From: an uncultured Clostridia bacterium
GTDB taxonomy: Bacteria; Bacillota; Clostridia; Lachnospirales; CAMZNU01
DNA length: 64,000 nt
Assembly (NCBI GenBank): GCA_947313885.1
Contig: CAMZNU010000009.1
Span: 64,396 to 128,395, forward strand
Direction of reading: 5' to 3'
Both the position numbers and the translations under genes were made by a program. Shown one piece after another: positions 4,866-46,901 of this stretch (positions are counted from its first letter, which is position 1; every line of letters begins with the position of its first letter). Below the pieces are notes generated by a model, which saw only the letters and a list, made by a program, of their open reading frames with translations, did not search any database and was not told the origin of the DNA.

Positions 4866-6737
4866 ATGGACAAGAAAAAAGAATTATTTGAAACAGATTT
4901 TGATGATATATTTTCAAAAGGTGCAGAAATTTCAAAAAGCGTAGAAACTTCAAAAAGTAGCACAGAAGATACGCCAGCGCCAGAAAAATTAGAAAATTCG
5001 AAAAAAATTAAAAGAAAAAAAGATAAAGTAGAGACAAAGTTATCAAGGTTTAGAGATAAAGTATTTAAAAAAAGAACATTGAGAAATTGGATAGAGTTAG
5101 GAGTAATGGTGGTTTTAGCGATAGTGTTAATTGCTTCTATCGTATATAAAAAAATACTAGAAGAAGAAATAGAAAATGAAATAGTATTTGCGAAGGTAGG
5201 TAAATCAATAGGTAACACACCAAACTATATATATATAAATAAAGACGTACACGATATAACAGTTCCTAGCCTAAAAAAAATATTGTTTGATAATGAAAAA
5301 ACGATATTATATTTTAATAAGAATATCGATCTAAATGATTATATTATATTTTTAATAGACGAGTATGGAAATTACTATAGTAAATTCGAAGCTAATACAG
5401 AAAGCTTAGAATTTAAAATAGCTACATTAGAGCCGGTCAAAAAAGAAATAAAAAGGTTTGAAGTAGTGGTATTAGATAGGTATGACAAGTTCGATCATTT
5501 TTTTAATGTTAAGTTAGACAAGAAAATAGATATAAAAAATAGTAAGTATTCACTAGGTGATTATTATGTTAAAAACATAGACAAAAGATCAAAAATAAAG
5601 TTGTCAAATGCTGTATTTTCACAATCGGCGTCTACAACTACACTGTTTGTTCCAAAAGGAAGTAAAGACGTTAAGTTTAGATATGGTCTAGATTATGTAG
5701 ATGATAAATATATAGATAAGAAAATAAACCTGATTGAAAATAAAAACTACTTAAACATCTATGAAGATCAAAGTAAATCATATGAAATTAGACGTTTAGG
5801 AGGCACTATGCATAAAATAAGCTTTGAGCCTTTAAAAATGTTAAATAACAAAATTAGAATAGAAATAACAGGTTTATTTATAGAGTATTATGTTAATAAA
5901 ACATTTAACGTTAGGGATTTGTTATTAAGAAATATAGATGATTACAAATTTGAGCTTGATAATTATGAAGTTAGGTTAGAGGGGCTAAGACAATATGGAG
6001 ATTATAATGTTTTAGTTGCTGATGCAATAGACCTTACTAAAGTTCAAGAGTTTGAAGATAGAAAGAAAGAGGCGGAAAACAAAAGAAATGCAAAAAGACC
6101 TATAAGAAATATTTATGATGACATTGAAGAGGAAAAAATAGAGATAGAAGAGATAGAGTTTAATGAAGATGATGCAAAAGTTTCGGTTTATATAAAAGCA
6201 TATCTTGAAGTCTTTAAAGATGAAGAATTTTATAGAGTGTACGGAGAACCCAAAGTTAAAAAAGAAGGTACAGATATAGTATTTTTTGATGAGAGATTAA
6301 AAGGTTTAACGTCTAGAGATTTTAAATTAGTGATAGAAAATGTCGCATTTAAAGAAGAAACAGGAATAATAGACATAGACGTAAATACTTTAGATGAAGA
6401 AGCTCCTCCAGCAGTATTTGTAAAGTATAAAGAATTTGCAGACGAATATTTCGGGAATCAAATAGGTGGGAAATTAACACCTGAGCTAGCAAAGGAGCTT
6501 AAAGGTGATATAGAGAGCATTATATTTAACGAGAAACAATGGTTATTAATCTCTTATATAGCAAATCGTGATGAGGTAATAGCTATAGTGTTGGAAGAAT
6601 GGCACGGCGAAACAGATAAAGAATATATTAGATATAACGCAGAACATGAGGTGACGATTAGAAATATAAATGGTGAATTAATATTGTTAAAAGACATACT
6701 ACACAATAAACCAGAATTAAAAATTAGATATAAATAG
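4866..6737 (+). CDS. hypothetical single-pass membrane protein with a large extracytoplasmic domain
   Basis: 623-aa ORF. It has a polar, basic N-terminus, one hydrophobic helix (WIELGVMVVLAIVLIASIVY), then about 520 aa with no motif I recognise. GTAGGTAGGTG precedes the ATG. Confidence 0.55.
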   Translation: MDKKKELFETDFDDIFSKGAEISKSVETSKSSTEDTPAPEKLENSKKIKRKKDKVETKLSRFRDKVFKKRTLRNWIELGVMVVLAIVLIASIVYKKILEEEIENEIVFAKVGKSIGNTPNYIYINKDVHDITVPSLKKILFDNEKTILYFNKNIDLNDYIIFLIDEYGNYYSKFEANTESLEFKIATLEPVKKEIKRFEVVVLDRYDKFDHFFNVKLDKKIDIKNSKYSLGDYYVKNIDKRSKIKLSNAVFSQSASTTTLFVPKGSKDVKFRYGLDYVDDKYIDKKINLIENKNYLNIYEDQSKSYEIRRLGGTMHKISFEPLKMLNNKIRIEITGLFIEYYVNKTFNVRDLLLRNIDDYKFELDNYEVRLEGLRQYGDYNVLVADAIDLTKVQEFEDRKKEAENKRNAKRPIRNIYDDIEEEKIEIEEIEFNEDDAKVSVYIKAYLEVFKDEEFYRVYGEPKVKKEGTDIVFFDERLKGLTSRDFKLVIENVAFKEETGIIDIDVNTLDEEAPPAVFVKYKEFADEYFGNQIGGKLTPELAKELKGDIESIIFNEKQWLLISYIANRDEVIAIVLEEWHGETDKEYIRYNAEHEVTIRNINGELILLKDILHNKPELKIRYK

Positions 6738-6788: not shown

Positions 6789-8405
6789 ATGTTAAAAATA
6801 ACAAATATGAAATTAAGCATAGATTATGAAGAAGAAGAGATTGCAACAAAGATAGGCAAAATGCTAAGGTGTGATGTAAAAGATATAGAGAGAATAAATA
6901 TAATTAAGAAATCAAAAGATGCAAGAAATAAAAGTAATATCAAATGGGTTATTACTTTAAGTATAGAAATAAAAAATGAAAATAAGTATTTAAACATAAA
7001 AAATGTATCCAAATTAGTAGTTAAAGAATATGAGGTAGAAAAAGCTAAAAGTGATAAGAGTCCAGTAATAATTGGAAGTGGACCAGCAGGATTATTTTGT
7101 GCATTAGTGCTAGCAAGAAGTGGATTAAAACCTATAGTAATTGAGCGTGGAAGCGATGTTGATACAAGAGTTAAAGTATTAGAAGAATTTTTAAATAATA
7201 AAAAGTTAGATGAAAATTGTAACGTGCAGTTTGGAGAAGGAGGTGCGGGAACTTTTTCAGATGGTAAATTAACGACAGGAAAAAAGGATAAGCGGATAAA
7301 TTATGTTTTACAGGAGTTTGTATTAGCAGGAGCGCCAGAAGAAATTTTATATGATGCAAAACCGCATATAGGTACAGATATGTTAATTAAAGTTGTAAAA
7401 AACATAAGAAATAAAATACTAGAATTAGGAGGAGAAGTTAGATTTAATAATATTTATGTTGATTTTAATGAAAAAAACTGTAATATAGTAAGTGTAGAAG
7501 TTGTGGAAAATAATAGGAGATACATTATAGAAAGCGACGTTGTAATATTAGCGACAGGACATAGTGCAAGGGATGTATTTGAGCAGTTGAATAAAAAAGG
7601 TGTAAAAATGCTAAGTAAGAAATTTTCGGTAGGAGTCAGAATAGAGCATAAACAAAAGTATATTGATAATGTACAGTACGGAGATTATAAATTAGCAAAA
7701 AAATTAGGATCAGCAGAATATAAAATGAATAAACATTTAAAAAATGGAAAAGGTGTTTACACTTTTTGTATGTGTCCAGGAGGAAAAGTAATAGCATCAC
7801 AAAGTGAAAAGAATACAGTGGTAGTAAATGGGATGAGTAATTATTTAAGAGATAGCGAAAATGCAAATAGTGCAATACTAGTATCTGTAGATGAAAATGA
7901 TTTTAAGGAAGAGTTAGGAACGACAGAAGATAACCCGTTAAACGGAATTTATTTTCAACGAAAGTTAGAAGAAAAAGCTTTTATAGCAGGAGGATCTAAT
8001 TATAATGCACCATATCAATTGGTAGAAGACTTGCTAGCAGGTAAAAAATCAACGTGTTATAAGGATGTAAAACCTAGTTACGATTTAGGATTAACGCCAT
8101 CTGACATAAATGAATTTTTACCAAAAGTAATAGTAGAAAGTATCAAGGAAGGGTTAATGAGTATGGATAGGCAAGTTAGAGGATTTGCGAGTAATGGAGG
8201 GGTAATGACAGGAGTAGAAACGAGGAGTTCATCACCTGTAAAAATTTTAAGGGATGAAAATTATGACTCTAGTGTAAAAGGGTTAAAAGTATGTGGAGAA
8301 GGTCCAGGATATGCAGGAGGTATAATGTCGGCTAGTATTGATGGAATAAAATGTGCTGAACAAGTAGTAAATAAATATAAAATAGAGTATGTAAATAAGA
8401 GGTAA
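6789..8405 (+). CDS. FAD-dependent oxidoreductase (COG2509-like NAD(FAD)-utilising dehydrogenase)
   Basis: 538 aa. Rossmann dinucleotide motif VIIGSGPAGLFCAL, plus the length and C-terminal GPGYAGGIMSA motif typical of this family. Confidence 0.7.
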   Translation: MLKITNMKLSIDYEEEEIATKIGKMLRCDVKDIERINIIKKSKDARNKSNIKWVITLSIEIKNENKYLNIKNVSKLVVKEYEVEKAKSDKSPVIIGSGPAGLFCALVLARSGLKPIVIERGSDVDTRVKVLEEFLNNKKLDENCNVQFGEGGAGTFSDGKLTTGKKDKRINYVLQEFVLAGAPEEILYDAKPHIGTDMLIKVVKNIRNKILELGGEVRFNNIYVDFNEKNCNIVSVEVVENNRRYIIESDVVILATGHSARDVFEQLNKKGVKMLSKKFSVGVRIEHKQKYIDNVQYGDYKLAKKLGSAEYKMNKHLKNGKGVYTFCMCPGGKVIASQSEKNTVVVNGMSNYLRDSENANSAILVSVDENDFKEELGTTEDNPLNGIYFQRKLEEKAFIAGGSNYNAPYQLVEDLLAGKKSTCYKDVKPSYDLGLTPSDINEFLPKVIVESIKEGLMSMDRQVRGFASNGGVMTGVETRSSSPVKILRDENYDSSVKGLKVCGEGPGYAGGIMSASIDGIKCAEQVVNKYKIEYVNKR

Positions 8406-13422: not shown

Positions 13423-15363
13423 ATGGGTATAATGATTGCAAAAACGGCAGGGTTTTGTTACGGAGTAAAAAAAGCAGTAGACACTGTATATAAAGAGGCA
13501 AAAGAAGGAGAAGTTACAACATTAGGTGAAATAATTCATAATGGAATAGTAATAGAAGATTTAAAAAGTATGGGAGTAGAAACCATAGATAGTATAGAAC
13601 AGTTTAAAAAAGGAAAGTTAATAATAAGATCTCATGGAGTATGTAAAAAAACTATAGAAAAAATAAAAGATAAAAAAATAGATTATATAGATTGCACATG
13701 TTATGACGTGAAAAAAATACATAATATTGTGGAGCTACAAAGTGGCTTAGGAAAAAATATAATAGTAATAGGAAACAAGAACCATCCAGAAGTAATAGGA
13801 ATAAGTGGATGGTCGTCAAAAGAGGTAGTTGTAATAAAAGATGAAAGTTGTAAAAACATATTAGAGTTAAAGACAGATAAAGAGTATGTAATAGTGGTGC
13901 AAACGACATATAATTTAGATATGCTAAATAAGATAGTGAAAAAAATAGAAGAAAGAAAGATTAAATACAAGTTAGAAAATACAATATGTAAGGCTACAAT
14001 AGATAGGCAACGTGAAGTAGTAGAATTATCTAAAAAGATGGATCACATGCTAGTTATAGGTGGCAAAAAAAGTTCAAATACAAATAAATTATACGAGCTT
14101 GCAAAAAAAAATTGCAAAAATACATATTTTATTGAAAATGCAAGTGAAATAGACTTGAATTTTGTAAAAAAAAATGTTAAGATTGGTATAATGGCTGGTG
14201 CATCAACACCACAAGCTATAATTAAGGAGGCAATGAAAATTATGAGTACAGAAATTACAGATGAAATGACTTTCGAGGAGATGTTGAATCAATCTTTAGA
14301 AAACAGGGTAAAAACAGGAGATATAGTAACAGGTACGATCATTCGTATTGTAGGCGAAGAAATCTATGTAAATGTTCAGTATAAATCTGATGGAATTATT
14401 CCAGCGGGAGAGTACGCAAGTGATAAGAGCATTAAAGCATCAGAGTGTGTTAAAGTTGGAGATGACATAGAAGTTTATGTATTAACTTTAAATGATGGAG
14501 ATGGAAATGTTGTATTATCTAAAAAAAGAATAGAAGAACATAGAGCATTCTTAGAGCTTGAAAAAGTTTACGACGAAAAAGAAATAGTAATGGGTAAAGT
14601 TGTAGAAGTAATTAAAGGCGGATTAATAGCAGTTATAAGAGAAAATAGAATATTTGTTCCAGCATCTCAAATTTCAGCTAGTTTTACAAAAGATCTAAAT
14701 TCTTTTGTTGGAAAAGAACTTGAATTTAACATTATCGAGTTTAATAAAACAAAACGTAAAGTAGTAGCTGGACGTAAAGAAATAGCTCAAAAAGAAATGG
14801 CTGGTAAGAGAGCAGAAATATTTGCAAAAATTGATGTTAATACTAGACTTAAAGGTGTTGTAAGACGTATAGTAGATTATGGAGCGTTTGTAGATATCGG
14901 TGGCATCGACGGATTAATTCACATATCAGAATTAGCGTGGTGTAGAGTTAAAAGAGTAACAGATATCATTAATGTAAACGATGAAGTTGAAGTTGTAATT
15001 ATAGATATTGATAAAGAAAAAGGCAAAGTAGCATTATCACTAAAAGCGATTACAGAAAATCCGTGGAATGATGCGGAAAATAAATTTAAAGTAGGAAATA
15101 CTATTACAGGTAAAGTAGTAAGAATCGTAGACTTTGGAGCTTTTGTAGAAATAGAGCCAGGAGTAGATGCTTTATTACATATTTCTCAAATTTCACATAA
15201 TCATACAGATTCAGTAGCATCTGTATTAAAAGTGTCACAAGAAATAGAGGCCGAAGTAATAGAATTAGATCTTAAAATAAAAAAAATAAGTATATCAATG
15301 AAAGCTTTAGAAGAGAACCCTGAAGAGGATAAAGAAAAAACAACAACAGAAGAAGAAGCATAA
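13423..15363 (+). CDS. ispH: bifunctional IspH (LytB) / ribosomal protein S1 fusion
   Basis: 646 aa. The N-terminal ~280 aa are IspH-like (AGFCYGVKKAV, HNPEV-type motifs). The C-terminal part has four S1 repeats (e.g. GDIVTGTII, GKVVEVIKGGL, LKGVVRRIVDYGAFVDI, ITGKVVRIVDFGAFVEI). Confidence 0.9.
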   Translation: MGIMIAKTAGFCYGVKKAVDTVYKEAKEGEVTTLGEIIHNGIVIEDLKSMGVETIDSIEQFKKGKLIIRSHGVCKKTIEKIKDKKIDYIDCTCYDVKKIHNIVELQSGLGKNIIVIGNKNHPEVIGISGWSSKEVVVIKDESCKNILELKTDKEYVIVVQTTYNLDMLNKIVKKIEERKIKYKLENTICKATIDRQREVVELSKKMDHMLVIGGKKSSNTNKLYELAKKNCKNTYFIENASEIDLNFVKKNVKIGIMAGASTPQAIIKEAMKIMSTEITDEMTFEEMLNQSLENRVKTGDIVTGTIIRIVGEEIYVNVQYKSDGIIPAGEYASDKSIKASECVKVGDDIEVYVLTLNDGDGNVVLSKKRIEEHRAFLELEKVYDEKEIVMGKVVEVIKGGLIAVIRENRIFVPASQISASFTKDLNSFVGKELEFNIIEFNKTKRKVVAGRKEIAQKEMAGKRAEIFAKIDVNTRLKGVVRRIVDYGAFVDIGGIDGLIHISELAWCRVKRVTDIINVNDEVEVVIIDIDKEKGKVALSLKAITENPWNDAENKFKVGNTITGKVVRIVDFGAFVEIEPGVDALLHISQISHNHTDSVASVLKVSQEIEAEVIELDLKIKKISISMKALEENPEEDKEKTTTEEEA

Positions 15364-15373
15364 TCTAAATCAT

Positions 15374-15404
15374 AAAAAAAAGACATCATAAATGTCTTTT
15401 TTTT
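15374..15404. terminator. bidirectional intrinsic terminator
   Basis: Stem agacat / atgtct, extended by a flanking A-run and T-run. It serves ispH-S1 on the plus strand and the small peptide genes on the minus strand. Confidence 0.75.
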
Positions 15405-15414
15405 ATGCAATAAA

Positions 15415-15570
15415 TTAGCCGTTAATATTACAATCGTTAAACTCAGCAGAAGTTTCACAATAATCTAACGCCTCACTTTTAATTTGCAAAGCTACACTAC
15501 TAGTTGTTTTTAAATTATTTAAGTTGTTTAAATCGGATGGATTATTATTCTTATTCTTTTTATTGTTCAC
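15415..15570 (-). CDS. 51-aa hydrophilic Cys-containing peptide, copy 1 (not in the ORF track)
   Basis: GTG start with AAGGAG 6 nt upstream. Translation is (M)NNKKNKNNNPSDLNNLNNLKTTSSVALQIKSEALDYCETSAEFNDCNING, translated by hand codon by codon. Its stop lies 11 nt before the terminator hairpin. Confidence 0.55.
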   Translation of the reverse strand: MNNKKNKNNNPSDLNNLNNLKTTSSVALQIKSEALDYCETSAEFNDCNING

Positions 15571-15702
15571 AATTAACTCCTTCTAGAAATTTTTTCTGTA
15601 TGTTTAAATATAAAAAATAATATGTATAATGTCACAACAAGAAAAAAATAAAAAATTTTATATACTTATTAAGAACCGAGGGTAAAGAAGAAATAACATA
15701 AA

Positions 15703-15858
15703 TTAGCCGTTAATATTACAATCGTTAAACTCAGCAGAAGTTTCACAACAATCTAACGCCTCATTTTTAATTTGCAAAGCTACACTACTAGTTGTTTTTA
15801 AATTATTTAAGTTGTTTAGATCGGATGGATTATTATTCTTTTTCTTTTTATTATTCAC
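15703..15858 (-). CDS. 51-aa hydrophilic Cys-containing peptide, copy 2 (paralogue of copy 1)
   Basis: Same architecture as copy 1 (AAGGAG, 6 nt spacer, GTG). Translation is (M)NNKKKKNNNPSDLNNLNNLKTTSSVALQIKNEALDCCETSAEFNDCNING. It differs from copy 1 by N6K, S32N and Y37C plus 2 synonymous changes. No indels, and the frame is preserved. Confidence 0.55.
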   Translation of the reverse strand: MNNKKKKNNNPSDLNNLNNLKTTSSVALQIKNEALDCCETSAEFNDCNING

Positions 15859-16112
15859 AATTGACTCCTTCTAGAAAATTTTTTTCTATATGTTCAAATA
15901 TTAAAAAATAATATGTACAATTTCACAACAAGAAAAAAATAAAATTTTTTATATCCTTATTATTGTGTATAAAAAAATATAAAGTATTCAAAAAAATAAA
16001 AAAAAACTTTTAAATAAAGGATATAAAACTTTGTAAAATATTATGTCTATTTAAGGATAAAAAGATATGGTAAAATTCTAATAGATATTGAACCGTAGAA
16101 ATTGGAGGCATT

Positions 16113-18128
16113 ATGAAATTACTAGAAGATGAATTTATAAAGAAATATAAAAATGTAAAACCGTCTATGAGCGAAATAGGTGAATTCACATTTTTGAGAA
16201 CATATTCCAGATATTTAAAAGAAAAAAATAGACGTGAGATGTGGTTTGAGACGTGTAAAAGAGCAGTAGAATTTAACTGTTCTTTAGATGAAAACGTAAC
16301 AAGAGAAGAGGCGGAACAGTTATTTGACAACTTATTTAATTTAAGAACCTTTTTAAGTGGGCGTACTTTATGGATAGGAGGAACTAAAGCATCAAAGTTG
16401 TTCCCAATGTCAAATTTTAATTGTGCTTTTACAGTTATAGATTCATTTGAAGCAATACTTGATGTATTTTATTTGTTAATGATAGGTGCAGGAGTCGGTT
16501 GTAGAATTTTAAAAGATGATGCTAAAAAAATGCCTTCAATAAGAAAAGTGAAAATTGTGCATAAAGATTATTGTGGAGTGCCTAAAAAAGAAAGACTTGA
16601 AAATACTAAAGAAAAAGTAGAAAATAATAAATTAATAATTATTATAGGTGATAGTAAAAATGGATGGTCAGAAGGATTAAAGAAATATTTTGATGCATTA
16701 TATAAAAATGAGTTTGAAAATATAAATGAAATACATTTAAATTATGACAATATAAGACCAAAAGGTGAAATTTTAAAAACTTTTGGAGGGCGTGCAAGTG
16801 GACATGAGTCACTTAAAAATATGTTTGTAAAAATACATAGAGTTTTAGATAATAGCAAATCAAATATTTCAACGTTAGAATGCTTAGACATTTGCAATAT
16901 TATAGCGGAGAATGTTGTTTTAGGTGGAGTCAGACGAAGCGCGGAAATGATCATAGTAGATAGTGATGATGCTGACGTATTAAATGCTAAAAACGATATT
17001 TATAAAGATGGTAAATGTAATCAAGAAATAGTACATAGATATTTATCAAACAATAGTGTTTTATATGATGAGCTACCAAATAGAGAAACATTTAAAGAGC
17101 ATTTCAAAAAAATAAGATACTCAGGGGAACCAGGTTTTATAATGAGCAAAGAAGCTACTAGAAGAAATAAAAACTTTAAAGGTGTAAACCCATGTGGTGA
17201 AATTTTATTAGATGATAAGCAAACTTGTAATTTAGTAACTACAGATTTAAATAAATTTATAAAAGATGGCGTTTTAGATGAAGAAAAATTATTTAAAGCA
17301 TACGAATTAATTGTAAGAGCATCATTTAGATTGACATTATTAAAATTAGAATTACCAGAATGGGATGAGAAACAAAATAGAGATAGATTATTAGGAGTGT
17401 CTCTAACAGGTATTCAAGATGCATTTAACACTCTTAAATATAATAAAGAAGAAAAAATAAAATTATTAAATAAATTAAGAGAATTAGCTATAAAAACGGC
17501 AAATGATTATGCAGATAGTTTAAATTTAAACAGACCTATGTTAGTAACTACAGTAAAACCAGAAGGTACAATATCTTTATTATCGACAGTTTCAAGTGGA
17601 GTACATTATTCACATTCACCGTACTACATAAGAAGAATAAGAGTAAATACATCAGATCCATTATGCAAGTTAGCAGAACATAACAATTATCCTATATACC
17701 CAGAAGTAGGACAAGATATAAAAAATTGTATGACTAAAGTAGTAGAGTTTCCAGTTAAAGCACCAAAAGGAAAAACAAAATATGAAGTATCAGCAGTAGA
17801 GCAATTTGAAGATTACTTAATGTTTCAAGAACATTACACGCAACATAACACAAGTATTACAATTCATGTAAAAAATGATGAGTGGGAACAATTAGAGGAA
17901 GTTGTGTTTAAAAATATTCATAAAATAATAGGTATAACGTTTTTATCAATAGATGATAGTTTTTATCAGTTATTACCTTATGAAAGCATAAATGAAGAAG
18001 AATATTTAGATAGAAAAGAAAAGTGTAAATCATTTTCGGCAGAAGAACTAATGGAATATGAAAACTTAGAACTAGAATTTGATTTAATAGATGACGATTG
18101 TGTAGGCGGGGCATGTCCTGTTAGATAA
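16113..18128 (+). CDS. nrdJ: class II (adenosylcobalamin-dependent) ribonucleotide reductase, monomeric RTPR-like
   Basis: 671 aa. FLRTYSR motif near the N-terminus, active-site NPCGEI, and a C-terminal redox Cys pair CVGGACPV. Confidence 0.8.
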   Translation: MKLLEDEFIKKYKNVKPSMSEIGEFTFLRTYSRYLKEKNRREMWFETCKRAVEFNCSLDENVTREEAEQLFDNLFNLRTFLSGRTLWIGGTKASKLFPMSNFNCAFTVIDSFEAILDVFYLLMIGAGVGCRILKDDAKKMPSIRKVKIVHKDYCGVPKKERLENTKEKVENNKLIIIIGDSKNGWSEGLKKYFDALYKNEFENINEIHLNYDNIRPKGEILKTFGGRASGHESLKNMFVKIHRVLDNSKSNISTLECLDICNIIAENVVLGGVRRSAEMIIVDSDDADVLNAKNDIYKDGKCNQEIVHRYLSNNSVLYDELPNRETFKEHFKKIRYSGEPGFIMSKEATRRNKNFKGVNPCGEILLDDKQTCNLVTTDLNKFIKDGVLDEEKLFKAYELIVRASFRLTLLKLELPEWDEKQNRDRLLGVSLTGIQDAFNTLKYNKEEKIKLLNKLRELAIKTANDYADSLNLNRPMLVTTVKPEGTISLLSTVSSGVHYSHSPYYIRRIRVNTSDPLCKLAEHNNYPIYPEVGQDIKNCMTKVVEFPVKAPKGKTKYEVSAVEQFEDYLMFQEHYTQHNTSITIHVKNDEWEQLEEVVFKNIHKIIGITFLSIDDSFYQLLPYESINEEEYLDRKEKCKSFSAEELMEYENLELEFDLIDDDCVGGACPVR

Positions 18129-18145
18129 ATATAAAAATATGAAAA

Positions 18146-18185
18146 ACAAAAGCTTTATATTAAAAATATAAAGCTTTTGTTTTTT
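18146..18185 (+). terminator. intrinsic terminator between nrdJ and dut
   Basis: Long perfect stem acaaaagctttatatt / aatataaagcttttgt, then a T-run. Confidence 0.85.
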
Positions 18186-18207
18186 AAAATAAGAAGGGAG
18201 AAATAAA

Positions 18208-18711
18208 ATGGATACAATAAAATTTGCAAAAATGACTGATACAGTAATAATACCAAGTAAAAGAGAAGAAGATGGGTGTTATGATTTATACGTTAATTTT
18301 GACGAAGAAACATTTTTAATAAAAAGTAAAGAAATAGAAAATATACCTACAAAATTAAAAAGTATGTTTGACAGTAAATATAGAATAGGAATAAGAGAGA
18401 GAGGGAGTAATACAAAATCAAAACTATTAGTAGTAGCAGGACAAATAGATAGTAATTATAGAGGTGAATGGTTTTTGTCTTTATACAATAGTACAGATGT
18501 AGATATAATAATAGATAAAGGGATAGATGAAGTTACGAAAACTTATGAAAATGGTAAGCTAATAAATTTAAGAGTGCCGTATAAAAAAGCTTTTGCACAA
18601 TTTGCAGTAGAAGAAATTCCGATAGTTGAAATAAAAGAAGTGAGTGAAGAAGAAATAGATAATAATAAAACTAATAGAAATCTAGGTAAAATAGGCAGTA
18701 CAGGTAAATAA
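18208..18711 (+). CDS. dut: dUTP diphosphatase (dUTPase/dCTP deaminase superfamily)
   Basis: 167 aa. Motifs DGCYDLY, RGSN and GQIDSNYRGEW match trimeric dUTPase motifs. Confidence 0.75.
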   Translation: MDTIKFAKMTDTVIIPSKREEDGCYDLYVNFDEETFLIKSKEIENIPTKLKSMFDSKYRIGIRERGSNTKSKLLVVAGQIDSNYRGEWFLSLYNSTDVDIIIDKGIDEVTKTYENGKLINLRVPYKKAFAQFAVEEIPIVEIKEVSEEEIDNNKTNRNLGKIGSTGK

Positions 18712-21434: not shown

Positions 21435-21472
21435 AAACCCAAAAAAGAGCTGTAGCACTTTTTTGGGTTTTT
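21435..21472 (+). terminator. intrinsic terminator after valS
   Basis: Stem aaacccaaaaaag / cttttttgggttt, then T-rich sequence. Confidence 0.8.
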
Positions 21473-21523
21473 ATGTATATAGAAATTAAATAAAGTTCAA
21501 AATAATTAAAGAGGTGCATAATT

Positions 21524-22948
21524 ATGAAAAAGGACTTAAGCATAAAAAAACAAATTTCTGTATTTGAAAGTAAGTTGCCAATAAAAAATAGTTTTGATGT
21601 AATAGGAAGGAATATAAAAATATTAGATAAAGAAGGATATTTTATATTTATAGATGGATTTGCTAAAGATAATATTATGTACTATATATTAACGAGGTTA
21701 CAACTAGATAAAAGAGAATTCACATCTATAGATGACATGATAAAAAATAATATAGGTTATATAGAAGTAGAAAGTAATAATAACATAGACAAAATAGCGA
21801 CATCAGTGTTAAGTGGAATGATAGCATTGTTAATAGATGGTGAAGAAAAAGTAGTATTAATAGATGCTAGAGAATATCCAACACGTAGCATATCAGAATC
21901 GGAAACAGAAAAAATATCAAGAGGTCCAAAAGATTCCTTTGTGGAGACAATAGTATTTAATACAGCTTTAATAAGACGACGTATTAGAAGCGAAAAATTA
22001 ATATTTAATATGAAAACAGTAGGAAAAATATCTAAGACAGATGTTGCAATAGCGTATATAGATGATTTAGTAGATAAAAAAGTTTTAAAAGAAGTTATAG
22101 AAAAAATTGATAAAATAGATGCAGAAGCATTAATAATAGGTGATAATTATTTAGACGAACTGATTTTTAAAAAGAACTGGTATAATCCGCTACCACAAGT
22201 TAAATATACAGAACGACCAGAAGTAGTATCAGCTCATTTAGTGGAGGGGCATATAGCGTTAATTATTGATACATCACCATGTGTATTAATATTACCAGTA
22301 ACGTTATTTTACTTTACTCAATATGTAGATGATTATAATAAAAGTATGTTAAATGGTACGATTATAAGACAAATAAGATTTTTTGCTATATTTTTATCAT
22401 TAATGTTAGTTCCAACATTTTTATTGGTTGCAGAAAATAATACAGCGTTAGATAATGTATTACATTATTTTAAAGTAATAGATGAAGGTTCTTTTAGTTT
22501 GCCGATACAGCTTATGATATTGGAATTTGGATTTGTTTTATTGCAGTTATCAAGTTTACAAACACCAAATTATTTAGGTGGTACATTTGGAATATTAGGA
22601 GGATTATTAATAGGTGAGCTTGCAATAAATCTTGGAATGTTTTCAGAGGAAGCGGTATTTTATATGGCATTAACAGCGATAGCAACGTATTGTATACCTA
22701 GTATAGAGTTTACATCGGCGATAAGATATTTTAGGTTTATAATATTAGTAGGTACGATAATATTAGGGGTAAAAGGATATATATTAACGTGTACACTAGT
22801 ATTTTTAATTACGTATAATACGGAAACTTTAGAGAATAGTCGAAAATATTTATGGCCGTTAATACCATTTGATTATAAAGCACTTAAAAATGTGTTAATA
22901 AGAAGAGATGTTAGAACGATAAATAGAGAAAATAAAAAAGAGTTGTAA
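21524..22948 (+). CDS. GerA-family spore germination protein A subunit / SpoVAF-like
   Basis: 474 aa. A soluble N-terminal domain is followed by about 5 transmembrane segments at the C-terminus. RGPKDSFVETI and the overall layout are typical of GerAA/SpoVAF proteins. Confidence 0.7.
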   Translation: MKKDLSIKKQISVFESKLPIKNSFDVIGRNIKILDKEGYFIFIDGFAKDNIMYYILTRLQLDKREFTSIDDMIKNNIGYIEVESNNNIDKIATSVLSGMIALLIDGEEKVVLIDAREYPTRSISESETEKISRGPKDSFVETIVFNTALIRRRIRSEKLIFNMKTVGKISKTDVAIAYIDDLVDKKVLKEVIEKIDKIDAEALIIGDNYLDELIFKKNWYNPLPQVKYTERPEVVSAHLVEGHIALIIDTSPCVLILPVTLFYFTQYVDDYNKSMLNGTIIRQIRFFAIFLSLMLVPTFLLVAENNTALDNVLHYFKVIDEGSFSLPIQLMILEFGFVLLQLSSLQTPNYLGGTFGILGGLLIGELAINLGMFSEEAVFYMALTAIATYCIPSIEFTSAIRYFRFIILVGTIILGVKGYILTCTLVFLITYNTETLENSRKYLWPLIPFDYKALKNVLIRRDVRTINRENKKEL

Positions 22949-34450: not shown

Positions 34451-35152
34451 ATGAGGCGTGAAAACAAAAATATAATAAAAAGATATGTAGTTAGTATGTT
34501 TACAATGACGGTAACAGCTGTATTTGTAAAAAAAATATCCGAAAAAAATAATGGTGTTTTAAGAAAGAAAAAATCAGGAACAAAAGCAAAACCAAAAGTA
34601 GAACCAAAACCAGAACTAAAACTAGAAGTAGAAGATGATAAAAAAAAAGAAGAACCAAAAGTAGAAATAAAACCAAAAACAGAACAAAAACTAGAAGTAG
34701 CAGATGATAAAAAGGAAGGAGAACCAAACCAGAATTCGAACCAAAAACAAAACCAAAACCAAAACCAGAACCAGAATCCGAACCAAAAGCAGAACCAAAA
34801 CCAAAAACAAAAAGAAAACCAAAAGCAGAATCCGAACCAAAAACAAAACCAGAACCAAAAACAAAATCCGAACCAAAAGCAGAACCAGAACCAAAAACAA
34901 AACCAAAACCAAAAACAGAACCCAAACCAAAAACAAAAACAAAACCAGAACCAAAAACAAAATCCGAACCAAAAACAAAAACAAAAACAAAAACAGAACC
35001 AAAAACAAAAAGAAAACCAAAAGCAGAATCCGAACCAAAAACAAAAACAGAACCAAAAGCAGAATCCGAACCAAAAACAAAAAGAAAAACAGAACCAGAA
35101 CCAGAACCAAAAACAAAACCAGAATCCGAACAAAAACAAAAATAAAAACTAA
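34451..35152 (+). CDS. membrane-anchored low-complexity repeat protein; frame after about 34727 is doubtful
   Basis: The ATG has AAGGAG upstream and the N-terminus has a hydrophobic segment (YVVSMFTMTVTAVFV). The first 92 codons carry KPK/EPK motifs using GAA/CCA/AAA codons. After 34727 the annotated frame gives N/Q repeats. The neighbouring frame (codon starts 34729, 34732, ...; stop at 35143-35145) continues the EPK/TKP pattern. Confidence 0.5.
   Translation: MRRENKNIIKRYVVSMFTMTVTAVFVKKISEKNNGVLRKKKSGTKAKPKVEPKPELKLEVEDDKKKEEPKVEIKPKTEQKLEVADDKKEGEPNQNSNQKQNQNQNQNQNPNQKQNQNQKQKENQKQNPNQKQNQNQKQNPNQKQNQNQKQNQNQKQNPNQKQKQNQNQKQNPNQKQKQKQKQNQKQKENQKQNPNQKQKQNQKQNPNQKQKEKQNQNQNQKQNQNPNKNKNKN
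34727..35145. repeat. low-complexity (A/C-rich) coding repeat, open in all six frames
   Basis: Imperfect repeats of gaaccaaaaacaaaaccagaaccaaaagcagaatcc type. The ORF track lists long ORFs in three plus and three minus frames here. Confidence 0.9.
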
Positions 35153-39603: not shown

Positions 39604-40920
39604 TTATAATTCAAAAACTGTTTGTTCTGTAACATCAATAGTTAAAGCTTCTAATGATTTTTTAACTATGTTCATTCTTACTTTATATTCATCTTCTTTA
39701 GATAAATCAGCATCACCTAAAGGATGTGGAATAGCGATAGCTGGAACTATTCTATTCGCACCTACTGTTAACGAAATTGGTACTACTGTACAAATATGTA
39801 CAACAGGAATACCAGAACGTTCAATTTCTTTTACCATCGTTGCACCGCAACGTGTACAAGTGCCTCAGGTAGAAGTTAAAATAACAGCGTCCACACCAGC
39901 ACTTAATAAATCTTGTGTAAACTCACTAGCGAAAGCTTTAGAGTTAGCAACAGATGTACCGTTACCAGTTGTTGAATAAAATATATTGTGTAAACTTCCA
40001 ATGACACCATCTTTTTCAAGTTGGCGTAAAACATCAACAGGAACGACTCTATCAGAATCGTCATTAGCATACACAGGGTCGTAACCACCGTGAGCTGTTT
40101 CAAAAGTTTCAGATGTTAAATCATTCATACCAGTAAAATCATAAGAACCGTATTTAGATGCACTAGATGATTCAACTTTATCTGGATTATTTTTAGGAAC
40201 TATACCACCAGATGTAACTATTGCAATTTTTGCTTTAGATAAATCTTTAATAGCTTTACCAGGCTCTACGTTATCGAAAGTTGGCATAGCATATTCCGTA
40301 GTAAATTTTTTACCGTTAATTTTATTTAAAAGCATATTTACCGCACGAGTAGAACCACGTTGTTCTACAAAAACGTTTTTTCTAATTCCACGAGGGAAGT
40401 AGCCTTCTGTATCTGCTGAACCTGTCATTTCACCTTTAGCTAATTTAATAGCAAATTTAGCAAGGGCTGGTGCTGCTTTACGCATACTAGCCGCCGAATT
40501 ACCAGTTGGTAAAATATAAGTATCTTTTTTAAATGAATCTAATCCTGGATTTTCTTCGTACATAGCTGTAACAGTTTTGATACCTTTTTCATTGATTGCT
40601 TTACAAACAGCACCACATGCCATACCATAACGTCCAGCATTAAACGCTGGTCCTGCTATAAATAGATCTGGTTTATGTTCTTCAACCATTTTTAAAATAG
40701 TTGATAAAGCTTCATCAGTATTTTCATTAAAATAAGAATCACCACAAATGATAGTAGCAACGATTTCGGCTTCATCGCCAAAATTTTGAGTAAGAGCAAG
40801 CCCAGGACCTACAACTTCTGTACGTACTTCTGGTTTGTAGTCTGCTTTTTCTTCGCCACCAATACCACCGTAAAACTGATTTATATAATGAACAACACGT
40901 ATTTTAGACAAGTTACCCAC
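39604..40920 (-). CDS. grdB: glycine reductase selenoprotein B (GrdB), in-frame UGA = selenocysteine
   Basis: The ORF track splits it into 39865..40920 (351 aa, ends ...AVILTST) and 39604..39837. Reading through the TGA at 39865-39867 gives ILTST-U-GTCTRCGATMVKEIERSGIP, the GrdB Sec motif. A hairpin follows the UGA. Confidence 0.9.
39838..39852 (-). promoter_or_regulatory. putative SECIS hairpin of grdB
   Basis: In the mRNA the UGA is followed by 12 nt, then CGUUGC-GGU-GCAACG (a 6-bp stem with a GGU loop). Confidence 0.55.
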
Positions 40921-40943
40921 CTCACATTTTTAGGATAGTTATA

Positions 40944-41414
40944 TTAGTATTTACCAAATTGATCTCTAATTGATTTCATTTCTTCACAAATATCGTCAAC
41001 GTCAAGAACCATTTCCATCATTCCGATTTGTTCGTCGTAGATAGAACTATCTACGGCGTCTTTAAATTCACTTTCTACTACGTGATAACAAGCGAGTCCT
41101 AACTGAACTCCTGCTAATGAACCTGCGAAAGTAGGGTCGCCATTTGTAACTGTTTCAGCTGCTAAACCAGCAGCTTCTCCTTCAGCAGCACCGATTAAAA
41201 TTATTACATTTTCAGCACCATGCTCTTCAGCGGCATTTTTAACCCTATTTTGATTTTCTAAGTCCATAGCTCCTGCAGCGGTTCAGACAAAACATTCTGT
41301 TGCAGAATAAATAATGTCTGTGTTAAGAGGTTTTAAACATTCCTCTATTGCAGGAGCTGGAATACCATCTCTGTCACCAATAATGATTACTTTTTTATTA
41401 TCGAATAATCCCAT
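40944..41414 (-). CDS. grdA: glycine reductase selenoprotein A (GrdA), in-frame UGA = selenocysteine at codon 44
   Basis: The ORF track shows only 40944..41267. Extending upstream through the TGA at 41283-41285 to the ATG at 41412-41414 (GGAG upstream) gives [55 protein letters not shown]. Confidence 0.9.
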
Positions 41415-41459
41415 TGTTTCCACTCCTTTTTAATTTTATTTAGAAATAATTGTCTTTGT

Positions 41460-42746
41460 TTAGAATTCACGAGCTGTAAGTTTATTAAACCCAAGTTCGT
41501 TAGTAGCACCAGTAATTACTTGAATTTCAGCTTCAATAGAACCGTCGCTACGTAAAGAGCCATCGAATCCACCAGCGATTTTATCAACATAATCAAGAGT
41601 ACCGATTAATTTATCCATTTTAGGTAATAAAATAACTTCGTTAGCATTTCCACCTGTAACTGTTGCATTAGCAAGAGGATCAGCATCGGCTAAAGATTGT
41701 GATAATCCGTCGCGTCCAGCATATTCATCAGTTACGATAACTGTTTTAATACCTTCTTGTTCGATTTTTTTACAGTTCATAATTAAATCTGTATCAGGAT
41801 TACCAAATCCTTCTTGAGAAATAATAACAGCATCTACACCAATAAGCTTACAAAGTTTAGCTGTAAAGTCCGATGAACGTTCTTTATCTGCTAAATATAC
41901 TGTTTCATTGGTAATTATAACACCTACAAAATTTATTTCTTTACCGTGCTTAGAATATAAATCTTTGATTATAGGGTTATTAAGATGATGATAAGTAGTA
42001 TTTTTATCACAGGCTGACACACAGTTACCGCTAGTTATAGCACCATCCATAATTTCAGTTGGGCTAAGTAGGGTAGGAATGATTTTTTTAGCATCAGCTC
42101 CGTATACATATGTATCGTGTAATAAACCTTGTGTTTGTAGCATGTAAACGTATGCAACTTTTGGTAAGTCAGGGTAATTAACAACACTTTGTGAAATAGG
42201 TAAAGTTTCATAAACTTCTACAACATCAGGTGTAATTTCTCTACCTAATTCTCCTAAATAATTAGCGATTGTTAAACCAGCAACACGTGCAGCATCTTCG
42301 TACTCATACGGTGTAAGATTGTCTACAGGTTCAATTACAAGACATACATTGAATAATTTAGAAAATGGTGTATAATCCGCACCAACTCCACACATATCAA
42401 TAATACCTTCTTGAAAACCTACAATTTTACCGCAAGTAACAACGGCACAACCAGATAAAACATGAGTTTTGCCAGAACCTACAGTGTTCATTTTAGAAAT
42501 CATACCAGGGAAAATATCCCCATTACCTTCTACTTTAACACGTGGTTCAATTACATCTTTTACAGGTGTAATTCTAGTACTGTCGTTAGGTTTTGCAATG
42601 TCAATAGTGACATTTTTAATACGTTCATCTTTTAAAACTATTTCCTTAATAGCATTAGCATTAACATTTAAAACACCGTTAACGATTTTTGATTCATCAG
42701 ATAAAACAACGTCTTTAATATTAATTCTACCAAGTTCAAGTTTCAT
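41460..42746 (-). CDS. grdE: glycine reductase proprotein GrdE (substrate-specific protein B subunits)
   Basis: 428 aa. The N-terminus MKLELGRINIKDV and overall similarity to GrdE (from memory). It lies between trxA and grdA. Confidence 0.85.
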   Translation of the reverse strand: MKLELGRINIKDVVLSDESKIVNGVLNVNANAIKEIVLKDERIKNVTIDIAKPNDSTRITPVKDVIEPRVKVEGNGDIFPGMISKMNTVGSGKTHVLSGCAVVTCGKIVGFQEGIIDMCGVGADYTPFSKLFNVCLVIEPVDNLTPYEYEDAARVAGLTIANYLGELGREITPDVVEVYETLPISQSVVNYPDLPKVAYVYMLQTQGLLHDTYVYGADAKKIIPTLLSPTEIMDGAITSGNCVSACDKNTTYHHLNNPIIKDLYSKHGKEINFVGVIITNETVYLADKERSSDFTAKLCKLIGVDAVIISQEGFGNPDTDLIMNCKKIEQEGIKTVIVTDEYAGRDGLSQSLADADPLANATVTGGNANEVILLPKMDKLIGTLDYVDKIAGGFDGSLRSDGSIEAEIQVITGATNELGFNKLTAREF

Positions 42747-42809
42747 AATACACCTCCCTTACAATAATTAGAAAATATATATTAAGAATATAAAATTCGA
42801 AATACCAAA

Positions 42810-43130
42810 TTACTTAACGTTTGTTAAAATCATTTGTTCAATGTTAGATTTAGTAGCATCTTCTTTAGTAAGAGTAGCTACTTTTTCACCGTTTTTATAA
42901 AGAATAACAGTAGGTAACCCAAGAACTTTTTGTGAAATTGCAAGGCGACGAGCTTTAGTAGTATTTAATTTAGTAAATTTAACTTTGTCGCCATGAGTTT
43001 TTGATAAATCCATAATTTCAGGAAGTAATGCTTCACAAGGAGCACAACCGTCTCCGAAATAATCAACTAAAACGAAATCCTCACAGTTTAAAACTTCTTC
43101 TTCAAATGTTTTTTTGTCTAATAAAATCAT
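42810..43130 (-). CDS. trxA: thioredoxin (grd-associated, CAPC active site)
   Basis: 106 aa. The active site reads GDGCAPC rather than WCGPC, as seen in glycine-reductase-linked thioredoxins. Confidence 0.85.
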
Positions 43131-43152
43131 AATATAATCTCCTTTTTAATAA

Positions 43153-44094
43153 TTATTCAAAATTTTCTTCAATATATTTTTCAGCTGTAATAGACGCAAT
43201 AGCACCATCACTAGTAGCTGTTACAACTTGACGTAAAGATTTAACGCGGATATCACCAGCTACAAAAATACCATCTATATTTGTAACCATGTTATCATCA
43301 GTTTTTAAGTAACCCCATTCCATATCAAGGACATCTGTGTATAGATGACTAACAGGATCAAAACCTATGAAAGGGAAAACTCCAAATGTGCCATCGTCAT
43401 CATGAGCGAAATGTTCATGAAGTTCATTAGATTTAACGTTTTTAAATACGATAGATTCAACGATACCATCACCTTTGATTTCTTCAACCACAGTGTCCCA
43501 AAGGAAATGAATTTTATCGTTAGCCATTGCTTTATCAACGATAGATTGAGCGGCACGTAATTTATCACGACGATGAACGATAGTAACTTTTCTTGCGAAT
43601 TTTGAAAGGTACATAGCTTCTTCAACAGCAGAGTCACCACCACCGATAACAAACACTTCAAGTTCTTCAAAAAAAGCGGCGTCACAAGTAGCACAATAAG
43701 AAACCCCTTTACCAGTTAATTCTTTTTCACCAGGGCAACCAATAAGTTTTGGAGTACCACCGTTAGCAACGATAACAGATTTAGCTTTATAAACTTTATC
43801 ATCTGTATTTACAATTTTAATTTTGTTGTTGAAGTCAAAAGAAGTAACATTACCTTTTTCGATAACAGCACCAAAATGTAAAGCTTGTTCTTTCATTCTT
43901 GAAACTAAAGTAGGACCTGTAGAATCTTTAGGTGCTCCAGGATAGTTTTCAATTTCATCGGTAATAGCAATTTGCCCACCGATGGCATTTTTTTCAAGAA
44001 TTACAACGTCAAGTTTAGAACGTGAGGCATAAAGTCCAGCCGTAAGTCCTGCTGGTCCCGCGCCGATAATAACGATGTCATAAATTTTTTCCAT
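43153..44094 (-). CDS. trxB: thioredoxin-disulfide reductase
   Basis: 313 aa. GAGPAGLTAG FAD motif, CATCDA redox centre and GGGDSAVEEA NADPH motif. Confidence 0.92.
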   Translation of the reverse strand: MEKIYDIVIIGAGPAGLTAGLYASRSKLDVVILEKNAIGGQIAITDEIENYPGAPKDSTGPTLVSRMKEQALHFGAVIEKGNVTSFDFNNKIKIVNTDDKVYKAKSVIVANGGTPKLIGCPGEKELTGKGVSYCATCDAAFFEELEVFVIGGGDSAVEEAMYLSKFARKVTIVHRRDKLRAAQSIVDKAMANDKIHFLWDTVVEEIKGDGIVESIVFKNVKSNELHEHFAHDDDGTFGVFPFIGFDPVSHLYTDVLDMEWGYLKTDDNMVTNIDGIFVAGDIRVKSLRQVVTATSDGAIASITAEKYIEENFE

Positions 44095-44103
44095 TTTGTC
44101 CTC

Positions 44104-44469
44104 CTATAAACTGTTAATGATATCAAAATCTATTAATTGAAAATCTAATAAAACTTTGTCTATATAAATAGGCGTCGGTTTATTTTTTGTGAATTTTAAA
44201 TATGTAGCTATACTATGTTCAATAATAGAAAGAGACTTCATATCTAAAGTAGAAATTTCTTTAGAAACTATTATTGACTTATAAGGTGTTTCGTTAGGCT
44301 TAATACTTCCTGATAAAGGATGTGTAAGTAAAGTATGACCTTTATGAACAAGATCGCGAACACAAGTAAGAACGTCTATATAACAATAAACATCAATAAA
44401 TTTAATTGCGTAAGAGGAATTAAGCTTTTCTAAAACCATAGGGTTGTTAGTAACAAGTAAATTGTCCAT
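44104..44469 (-). CDS. grdX: GrdX protein (small protein encoded first in grd operons)
   Basis: 121 aa. The size and its position as first gene before trxB-trxA-grdE match GrdX. Assigned from memory of the family and synteny. Confidence 0.65.
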   Translation of the reverse strand: MDNLLVTNNPMVLEKLNSSYAIKFIDVYCYIDVLTCVRDLVHKGHTLLTHPLSGSIKPNETPYKSIIVSKEISTLDMKSLSIIEHSIATYLKFTKNKPTPIYIDKVLLDFQLIDFDIINSL

Positions 44470-44481
44470 AATGCTCCTTAT

Positions 44482-44520
44482 AAAAAAATAAACAGAAATA
44501 AAGCGTAGCTTTATCTCTGT
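44482..44520 (-). terminator. riboswitch expression-platform terminator upstream of grdX
   Basis: In the mRNA, ACAGAGAUAAAGC-UAC-GCUUUAUUUCUGU (13 bp, one G-U pair) is followed by UUAUUUUUUU. It ends 12 nt before the grdX SD. Confidence 0.75.
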
Positions 44521-44543
44521 TATAAATGTATTTCAGAGTATGT

Positions 44544-44642
44544 CCGAATATTCTGATTTTGCCTGAGAAGTTCACAAAGTTAGAGCTACTAATTTTGCTT
44601 GTACCGTCGGCGACATATGTAATATGTTCTCTCAAATATCCA
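44544..44642 (-). promoter_or_regulatory. glycine-riboswitch-like aptamer (single aptamer) in the grd operon leader
   Basis: The minus-strand RNA reads GGAUAUUUGAGAGAAC-AUAUUACAUAU-GUCGCCGACGGUACAAGC...GUGAACUUCUCAGGCAAAAUCAGAAUAUUC. This closely parallels the remembered glycine aptamer core GGAGAGAAC..GUCGCCGAAGGAGCAAGC...CUCUCAGGCAAAAGGAC. Confidence 0.65.
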
Positions 44643-44821
44643 TCATCCAATATTTAAAATGTAAATTCGTCAATATTATGTAAAATAAATAAAATAAAAC
44701 AATAATATTAACTAAAATATATTCAAATAACTAATAATTGTTAAATAAATATTTTATACAATAAATATAACATAAATATTTTATAAATGTCAACATAAAA
44801 CAAGTGAAAATTATATAAAAA

Positions 44822-46702: not shown

Positions 46703-46726
46703 AACCCCTCCAATTAATCAATGTAT

Positions 46727-46751
46727 AAAAAAAGCCTACTAATTAGTAGGC
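46727..46751 (-). terminator. intrinsic terminator directly after tRNA-Sec
   Basis: On the minus strand, GCCUACUAAUUAGUAGGC is followed by U7. It ends 24 nt before the selB start codon. Confidence 0.7.
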
Positions 46752-46765
46752 GTTGAGTATATTTT

Positions 46766-46861
46766 TGGCGGAAGCATATGGGAATCGAACCCACCTATGA
46801 CCTACAAGGCCACAACATAGTTTTGAAGACCAGTAGGAACACCAGTTACCTCTCTGCTTCC
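46766..46861 (-). tRNA. selC: tRNA-Sec (anticodon UCA)
   Basis: The minus strand reads GGAAGCAGAG...CUUCAAA...GGGUUCGAUUCCC...GCUUCCGCCA. It is 96 nt with anticodon loop CUUCAAA (UCA), a long variable arm, a 6-bp-type D stem with TGGT loop, and an encoded CCA. My hand fold of the anticodon stem is imperfect. Coordinates +/-1. Confidence 0.85.
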
Positions 46862-46872
46862 ATATCTAGTTA

Positions 46873-46901
46873 AATATAAAATATATTTAAAAAATTGTCA
46901 A
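46873..46901 (-). promoter_or_regulatory. sigma-A type promoter of tRNA-Sec
   Basis: On the minus strand, TTGACA, a 17-nt spacer, then TATATT. The -10 element ends 11 nt before the mature tRNA 5' end. Confidence 0.65.

Follow-up and report, generated by a model that had tools for sequence, protein, structure and literature searches.

A putative orphan small-protein gene duplicated in tandem between ispH-S1 and nrdJ in an uncultured Clostridia bacterium

The ispH-S1/nrdJ gap and its two reading frames

The DNA considered here is a stretch of 64,000 nucleotides, hereafter the window, from contig CAMZNU010000009.1 of assembly GCA_947313885.1, which originates from an uncultured bacterium of the Clostridia. 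In the gap between a fused ispH-S1 gene and nrdJ it carries two tandem copies of a short open reading frame (ORF), and we discuss the coding status, the history and the possible function of this pair. The fusion gene (13423-15363) encodes LYTB and four S1 domains according to a Pfam scan, nrdJ (16113-18128) encodes a class II ribonucleotide reductase (RNR), and the gap between them extends over 749 nt (15364-16112). An earlier note drawn up from the sequence alone had described this gap of some 750 bp as non-empty and as holding a direct duplication with a 288-bp period; alignment of 15410-15671 with 15698-15962 (92% identity) confirms the description. The gapless stretch of the direct repeat covers 213 nt (15410-15622 vs 15698-15910, 92% identity, spacing 288) and extends as 15611-15671 vs 15902-15962, again at 92% identity, with a spacing of 291. 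The shift of the spacing from 288 to 291 therefore reflects indels in the upstream A/T runs; these runs differ in length between the units, in keeping with the earlier statement that the non-coding flanks contain indels. A tblastn search found the repeat unit nowhere else within the window.

On the minus strand of each unit, AAGGAG, a 6-nt spacer, GTG and an ORF of 51 codons follow one another exactly as had been read before, and the translations match without exception (Table 1). The five substitutions reported between the two ORFs were also recovered: three are non-synonymous (N6K, S32N and Y37C, the last one adding a cysteine), two are synonymous and no indel is present. The small genes are oriented divergently from nrdJ and convergently with ispH-S1. 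The sole terminator-like site of the gap (15371-15407) is located at the ispH-proximal copy 1. Copy 2 has none, and its transcription would be predicted to run on into copy 1.

The encoded peptide is strongly hydrophilic, with a grand average of hydropathy (GRAVY) of about -1 and a maximum 19-residue Kyte-Doolittle mean <= 0.21. Neither a signal nor a transmembrane segment was detected, which agrees with the first description of the peptides. AlphaFold2 modeled a single helix at residues 24-39, corresponding to the conserved SVALQIK...LD region, at a predicted local distance difference test (pLDDT) value of 54; because this value is too weak, the model was not used for a fold search. We infer a cytoplasmic product that is hydrophilic and for the most part disordered, with a single short amphipathic helix. 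Its predicted tryptic or Glu-C peptides include TTSSVALQIK and SEALDYCETSAEFNDCNING.

The ORFs had been presented as unannotated. Both peptides are in fact already included in a public predicted-protein collection (source NCBI), and gene callers therefore do detect them. Their 90% protein cluster consists of the two window copies together with P0005 of GCA_947313815.1; one more protein, P0126 (37 aa, Logan runs SRR23346875 and SRR23346874), was picked up by a profile search. Word-indexed phmmer and profile searches of 5.8 billion proteins produced no homologue beyond three genomes, and full HMMER searches of 1.84 billion representatives returned the self-cluster and two spurious matches only (P0002 and P0003, long repetitive proteins matched over just 16-20 residues). 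Contigs from genomes, metagenomes and viruses, scanned by pattern and by tblastn, yielded no further homologue, tblastn against phage and plasmid collections no homologue, and a PDB sequence profile search no match to the peptide. No Pfam or NCBIfam family was obtained at E<=10 for any of the three peptide variants, PHROGs and PADLOC gave nothing credible and Rfam had no match for the repeat. The only hit among the family libraries, phrog_32476 (E = 0.26, with the 37-aa form), was discounted. The view that the peptides are members of no known family is thus borne out by the searches of Pfam, NCBIfam, PHROGs, PADLOC, PDB and the protein collections. With ispH-S1 as anchor, the GTDB representatives offered only unrelated lineages at 33-47% identity; with NrdJ as anchor, the metagenomes offered only two relatives at 30-33%. 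Weak tblastn matches 3' of ispH-S1 in Acutalibacteraceae metagenome-assembled genomes (loci L012, L017, L020 and L022) lie within a membrane protein of 257-263 aa and were rejected as chance. The small-protein family occurs only in one very small clade of spore-forming Clostridia with a low GC content.

Conservation of the frame and history of the array

A distant relative (locus L041), in which ispH-S1 and NrdJ are 77% and 72% identical to their window counterparts, presents the same order of genes: ispH-S1, small ORF, nrdJ, dut-like gene and valS. Its gap measures 322 nt and holds a single minus-strand ORF (AAAGGAG, 6 nt, ATG, 37 codons, MNKKNITKKTTTNSSVALDIKNNLLKDTFSASAEFTN) with its own bidirectional terminator (7941-7984), analogous to that of the window. 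The peptides align as T(T/N)SSVAL-x-IK ... L-x-D ... SAEF. In six-frame tblastn searches the window and L041 ORFs are reciprocal best matches, the syntenic ORF being the best in each locus. Their homology was assessed by shuffle tests in place of default BLASTP: the Smith-Waterman score of 49 between the two peptides is equalled by 18-48 of 20,000 composition-preserving shuffles, and for the C-terminal part of the peptides none of 20,000 shuffles reaches the score.

The nucleotide differences between the window and L041 ORFs are distributed as 11/12/21 over the three codon positions, with proportions of synonymous (pS) and non-synonymous (pN) differences of 0.69 and 0.34. For the same pair of genomes, nrdJ gives pS 0.62 and pN 0.16, and the dut-like gene pN 0.24. 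The SSVAL and SAEF codons contain six synonymous changes, including a serine changed from AGT to TCT. Over a block of 25 codons, 30 of 75 nucleotides differ and 14 of 25 amino acids are identical; when an equal number of changes is placed at random in this block, only one trial in 20,000 preserves the peptide to the same degree. Both alternative frames of the block contain stops and have BLOSUM scores <= -1. All indels between window and L041 are multiples of three, namely a 10-codon N-terminal insertion of the window lineage, a single codon and a 5-codon C-terminal extension. From this comparison of sequences we conclude that the gene is in all probability translated and under purifying, if relaxed, selection, and its coding signature supports the earlier proposal to that effect. 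Purifying selection acts on two blocks, T-x-SSVAL-x-IK and SAEF; lineage-specific additions are the N-terminal stretch rich in N/K, the C-terminal tail and the cysteines. The earlier note had suggested looking for conservation of the frame, of the Cys positions and of the C-terminus: the frame is kept in L041, the other two are missing. The gene is an independent unit of the monocistronic type, with its own Shine-Dalgarno sequence, a conserved start position and a bidirectional terminator.

The corresponding locus of GCA_947313815.1 (L040) has the same gene order as the window, at a synonymous divergence of pS 0.06-0.11. Its gap of 1027 nt contains three units, A intact, B and C decayed. Unit A adjoins nrdJ and encodes an intact peptide of 51 aa; three residues (N6K, Q29K and S32N) set it apart from window copy 1 and two (Q29K and C37Y) from copy 2. 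Next to this unit come a further copy of the terminator and some 55 nt from the 3' end of ispH-S1 (L040 10157-10260; repeat D3, 107 nt, 75%); the original duplication unit therefore reached into ispH-S1. One nucleotide of an A5 run is deleted in both B and C (A5 to A4), and their frame stops after 25 codons. Unit B has two more changes, which would be non-synonymous, deletions have removed some 35 nt upstream and some 46 nt within the ORF of unit C, and in both units the upstream CATAC is now GTATAC. Copy number indeed varies, as the earlier note had thought worth checking, with two units in the window, three in L040 and one in L041. Frameshifts in relatives, which had been named beforehand as an argument against a translated product, occur in the two extra L040 copies and not in the copy retained in every genome.

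A short, terminator-free junction is common to the passage from copy 2 to copy 1 in the window and from B to C in L040, and the array is therefore older than the split between these genomes. The pS of 0.07 between copies, similar to the genomic divergence given above, is consistent with this relative age. Unequal recombination amplified the gene in tandem in an ancestor that the window genome shares with GCA_947313815.1, from a unit that included the terminator and the ispH-S1 3' end, and the array has later grown or shrunk by the same process. The amplification is recent and the tandem pair belongs to ordinary duplication dynamics. The array is unstable, with redundant, decaying extra copies; each genome keeps a copy intact and the extra copies are dispensable.

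We consider it likely, with a probability of roughly 0.8, that the locus holds a real translated orphan small-protein gene, recently duplicated, and not a Cys-type precursor of a ribosomally synthesized and post-translationally modified peptide (RiPP). Two functional copies of a gene whose product, of 51 aa in the window, measures 37 aa in the closest different species would be the best explanation of the window repeat. Several points weigh on the other side. Default BLASTP finds no alignment between the window and L041 peptides; the independent lineages are only two, and the comparative statistics rest on one ortholog pair and on a protein-guided alignment; the ratio of 2 synonymous to 3 non-synonymous changes between the close copies lacks power; and, with two of the three L040 units broken, copy loss is tolerated. 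If expressed, the gene would add one more case to the small proteins that are specific to single bacterial lineages, a large class of which little has been charted. It offers a clean and compact example of the birth or extension of a coding sequence, of tandem amplification and of redundant-copy decay between near-identical genomes, the extension steps being the 10-codon N-terminal insertion, the 5-codon C-terminal extension and a stepwise gain of Cys residues from 0 to 2 to 3. No new mechanism is indicated and no long-standing question is opened.

Upstream element and possible functions

Beyond the Shine-Dalgarno sequence, hardly anything in the upstream regions of the window and L041 can be aligned, the exception being TTTGAACATA(C/T) at 32-37 nt from the start; TTTGAACATAC is kept in L041, 37 nt 5' of the ATG. 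At this distance the candidate -10 stretches read CATACAGA in copy 1, CATATAGA in copy 2 and CATACTAA in L041. The ATA of an (A/C)ATATT motif lies upstream of the box, at 18 nt in copy 1, 19 nt in copy 2 and L040 unit A, and 17 nt in L041; no AC was seen at the sigmaK spacing upstream of the copies or of the L041 ORF. The consensus used for comparison was taken from the Clostridioides difficile sigmaE/sigmaK tables, where the -10 element is of the CATA(C/T)A type and the -35 element is ATA (sigmaE) or AC (sigmaK), at 16-18 nt (PMC3789822, text and Table S7). CATA[CT]A occurs in the window at a frequency of 0.79 per kb per strand and is located upstream of 5 of 46 window genes, two of the five being the small ORFs. 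A sigma-70-like site, GTGACA-17-TATATT, is present in window copy 1 only, and none was found upstream of the L041 small ORF. Mother-cell expression is favored because the CATAC/TA box, with an ATATT upstream, is conserved and a sigma-70 promoter is not. The sporulation genes of the host comprise GerA, YqfD and YabP. The GerA-family gene (21524-22948) has a textbook forespore promoter, GTATA-N18-CAAAATA, at 21465-21523, which served as a calibration for sporulation promoters in this organism.

On the strength of these motifs, we tentatively propose that the gene may specify a small sporulation protein of the mother cell (sigmaE/K-like), with spore morphogenesis or coat association as the best functional guess; we rate this as a possibility rather than an expectation. 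The earlier note had likened the peptides to the small hydrophilic spore-specific peptides of Firmicutes, a likeness that may or may not hold: the host forms spores and the conserved upstream element resembles a mother-cell -10 box, but no homology to any family of small acid-soluble spore proteins was detected. The promoter assignment has its own weaknesses: the ATA + 19 nt of copy 2 falls outside the 16-18 range, the G at position 7 of the -10 element is unusual, AT-rich DNA yields many partial promoter matches, and the region can alternatively be read as a forespore-type aCATA-N18-CATACAg or, in copy 1, as the sigma-70-like site. Small sporulation proteins of the mother cell in Firmicutes include SpoVM (26 aa), CmpA (37 aa) and the coat proteins CotK/SspO and CotL/SspP, all from Bacillus subtilis; such proteins are typically small, fast-evolving and lineage-specific. 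The present family resembles them in size (26-50 aa), in its stand-alone gene with its own promoter and terminator, in its narrow range and in its rapid evolution. Further similarities are the spore-forming host and the candidate CATA-type -10 element, as in sigmaE/sigmaK promoters (PMC3789822). It differs from them in showing no sequence similarity, the Pfam and NCBIfam searches being empty, and SpoVM is an amphipathic membrane-binding helix whereas the peptide described here is strongly hydrophilic.

Expression in the forespore of a protein resembling the minor small acid-soluble spore proteins (SASPs), to be degraded at germination, seems unlikely to us. A spore-forming host and a peptide of small size and hydrophilic character would suit it, and a forespore promoter (sigmaG/sigmaF consensus G-x-ATA, 17-18 nt, CAxAxTA) can be read as aCATA-N18-CATACAg in the window and aAATA-N17-CATACTA in L041. 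Such a promoter would have a -35 element without the conserved G and, in the window, a -10 element without the terminal TA, in contrast to the canonical gerA-like GTATA-N18-CAAAATA. The ETSAEF and SASAEF of the peptide are loosely similar to the GPR cleavage motif E-(I/F)-A-S-E-F, and the inexactness of this resemblance tells against the proposal, as does the lack of any hit to a SASP family model (alpha/beta, gamma or minor) in Pfam or NCBIfam (E<=10). The minor SASPs of Bacillales (SspH-P, Tlp) are, like the present peptide, small, hydrophilic, of low complexity, taxonomically patchy and often unannotated or 'hypothetical'. They differ in being forespore (sigmaG) genes; here, no hidden Markov model (HMM) matches and the canonical sigmaG promoter features seem to be lacking. 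Minor SASPs of the SspH-P and Tlp types are not known from Clostridia.

A functional link with nrdJ is in our opinion somewhat less probable again. The peptide would then assist or regulate the neighboring B12-dependent NrdJ, or the nrdJ-dut module as a whole, and would be divergently expressed from a common control region. The small gene occurs only where nrdJ adjoins ispH-S1 and is divergent from it in all three genomes that possess it, and five relatives (58-60% ispH-S1 identity) without nrdJ at this position are also without the small ORF. This co-occurrence concerns two lineages only and is explicable by shared gene order; moreover, the five relatives differ across the whole downstream region and provide no true empty-site control. 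The Cys residues, a possible redox hint, are not conserved, the extra copies lie away from nrdJ, each with its own promoter copy, and the distant nrdJ loci L046 and L047 yielded no such ORF. The more specific idea of an adaptor or inhibitor for the monomeric B12-dependent RNR (nrdJ-dut), which might for example tune the supply of deoxynucleoside triphosphates during sporulation, is a shade more doubtful than the link itself. A NrdR-box-like reading of the shared upstream region was inspected by eye and gave no convincing match.

The nrdJ product is of the monomeric adenosylcobalamin ribonucleoside-triphosphate reductase (RTPR) type, with 1L1L as its best PDB match, and shares 37-39% identity with the RTPRs of phages of Bacillus and Thermus. 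Its gene is followed by that of a 167-aa dUTPase-like protein scoring far below the curated dut cut-offs (the pair spans 16113-18711). Relatives at about 60% ispH-S1 identity lack the nrdJ/dUTPase-like pair at this position.

It is very improbable that the repeat is a non-coding element, be it a small RNA or a structural or regulatory repeat, in which the ORF would be incidental. Such an element would fit the confinement of the family to three genomes, the frameshift in two L040 units and a transcript that folds somewhat better than shuffles (z = -2.4). This z-score is due to the terminator hairpin, the antisense ORF is not conserved in L041, and neither an Rfam match nor a further copy of the unit in the window was obtained. 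With nucleotide identity between the species down to about 60%, the amino acids, the Shine-Dalgarno sequence, the start position and the frame are nevertheless conserved, and a third-position bias is evident.

Least probable of all is the RiPP precursor (sactipeptide, ranthipeptide, lanthipeptide or disulfide type), in which an unlinked maturase would modify the Cys/Ser/Thr-rich acidic C-terminus. The window copies do consist of a hydrophilic N-terminal part followed by a C-terminal part with 2-3 Cys plus Thr/Ser, and tandem precursor copies are common in RiPP loci, which counts in favor of this assignment. The likeness to SCIFF/ranthipeptide, sactipeptide and lanthipeptide precursors extends to the length of about 45-50 aa, the hydrophilic N-terminal part, the tandem genes and the Cys, Thr and Ser residues of the acidic C-terminal part of the window copies. 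The differences lie in Cys residues that are not conserved, in the lack of an adjacent maturase or exporter, of a match to a curated model and of a leader/core split. The L041 ortholog contains zero Cys: Cys38 is aligned to Phe (TGT/TTT) and Cys47 belongs to the 5-codon C-terminal DCNING extension, missing in L041. Cys37 is encoded only by window copy 2, that is, by one of three intact copies. The best-conserved blocks cover both the supposed leader and the supposed core and define no partition between them. Pfam scans of 44 window ORFs (valS, the one other long ORF, was identified via L040 instead) revealed no radical-SAM/SPASM, LanB/M/KC, YcaO, ATP-grasp, C39-peptidase ABC exporter or immunity gene in the 64 kb, so that what had been observed for the adjacent genes, namely the lack of a maturation enzyme, transporter or immunity gene, extends to the whole window. 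No gene of these kinds was found among the called genes of L040 (20 kb) or L041 (14 kb) either; the scan covers the window and the loci of the relatives, and an unlinked maturase may lie elsewhere in the genome. No curated precursor model (e.g. SCIFF, lanthipeptide, NHLP/Nif11 leaders) was matched in NCBIfam or Pfam at E<=10. Because L041 is devoid of Cys, no leader/core split is apparent and no maturase or exporter is nearby, a Cys-based RiPP is not the conserved function. The leader-plus-core layout of the thioether or disulfide type seen by the earlier note is therefore not upheld by a Cys-free ortholog without DCNING and by the lack of a precursor-model match. As an orphan small protein, the peptide would act as it is, by binding a partner or a structure, and not as a substrate for Cys-based cyclisation. 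The Cys pattern of a single genome was misleading, and caution is advisable when RiPP precursors are deduced from one genome.

Other features of the window

The 44 ORFs scanned with Pfam comprise housekeeping, sporulation (GerA, YqfD) and peptidase genes as well as a glycine-reductase/selenocysteine island. The coordinates of the duplicated locus and of this island are collected in Table 1.

Table 1. Features of the small-protein locus and of the selenocysteine island, in window coordinates
Feature	Position	Strand	Remarks
Repeat unit 1	15410..15671	-	ORF plus about 100 nt of upstream region; repeat families D1 and D2
Repeat unit 2	15698..15962	-	ORF plus about 100 nt of upstream region; repeat families D1 and D2
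Inter-unit junction	15660..15702	-	Short remnant TTCTTCTTTACC..GGTTCTTAATAA of duplicated ispH-S1 3' end, terminator deleted (alignment A5)
Hairpin, 17-bp stem between A and T runs	15371..15407	both	Bidirectional intrinsic terminator common to the convergent ispH-S1 and peptide gene(s)
Small-protein gene copy 1 (ispH-proximal)	15415..15570	-	GTG, 51 codons + stop; product MNNKKNKNNNPSDLNNLNNLKTTSSVALQIKSEALDYCETSAEFNDCNING; reciprocal best tblastn match with the L041 37-aa ORF
Small-protein gene copy 2 (nrdJ-proximal)	15703..15858	-	GTG, 51 codons + stop; 5' flank common to intact unit A of L040 (alignment A5)
Shine-Dalgarno AAGGAG, copy 1	15577..15582	-	6 nt 5' of GTG
Shine-Dalgarno AAGGAG, copy 2	15865..15870	-	6 nt 5' of GTG
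CATACA box, copy 1	15597..15602	-	32 nt 5' of start; candidate mother-cell-sigma -10, preceded by ACATATT (ATA + 18 nt)
CATATA box, copy 2	15887..15892	-	34 nt 5' of start; same candidate -10 element
Gly_reductase component B	41460-42746
Thioredoxin-reductase-like gene	43153-44094
GrdX	44104-44469
Glycine riboswitch	44541-44646
SelB	44822-46702
tRNA-Sec	46770-46861
SelA	47384-48559
SelD-like gene	50185-51147

The island occupies 39827-51147. At its border, a SECIS_4 element (39827-39864, minus strand) is located directly 3' of the GrdB ORF (39865-40920); from this proximity, a UGA-containing selenoprotein gene has therefore been split by the ORF finder. Between about 38 and 44 kb of the window the GC content rises to 33-35%. 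Five ORFs of 202-623 aa remained without Pfam or NCBIfam match at E<=0.01 (36-1397; 1487-2095 and 2155-2772, both on the minus strand; 4866-6737; and 34451-35152) and add to the orphan proteins of this genome. Another ORF, of 1731 aa (57393-62588), contains Listeria-Bacteroides / InlB B-repeat domains and probably encodes a surface protein; a CATACA box is found 29 nt 5' of its start. The nearest other relatives are the loci L042, L043 and L048-L050 (GCA_0407773xx / 0407776xx), whose assemblies carry contig numbers between the hundreds of thousands and more than a million and are probably of a metagenome-like or host-associated kind. Several of these loci show a fusion of cmk with chorismate mutase or with ispH-S1.

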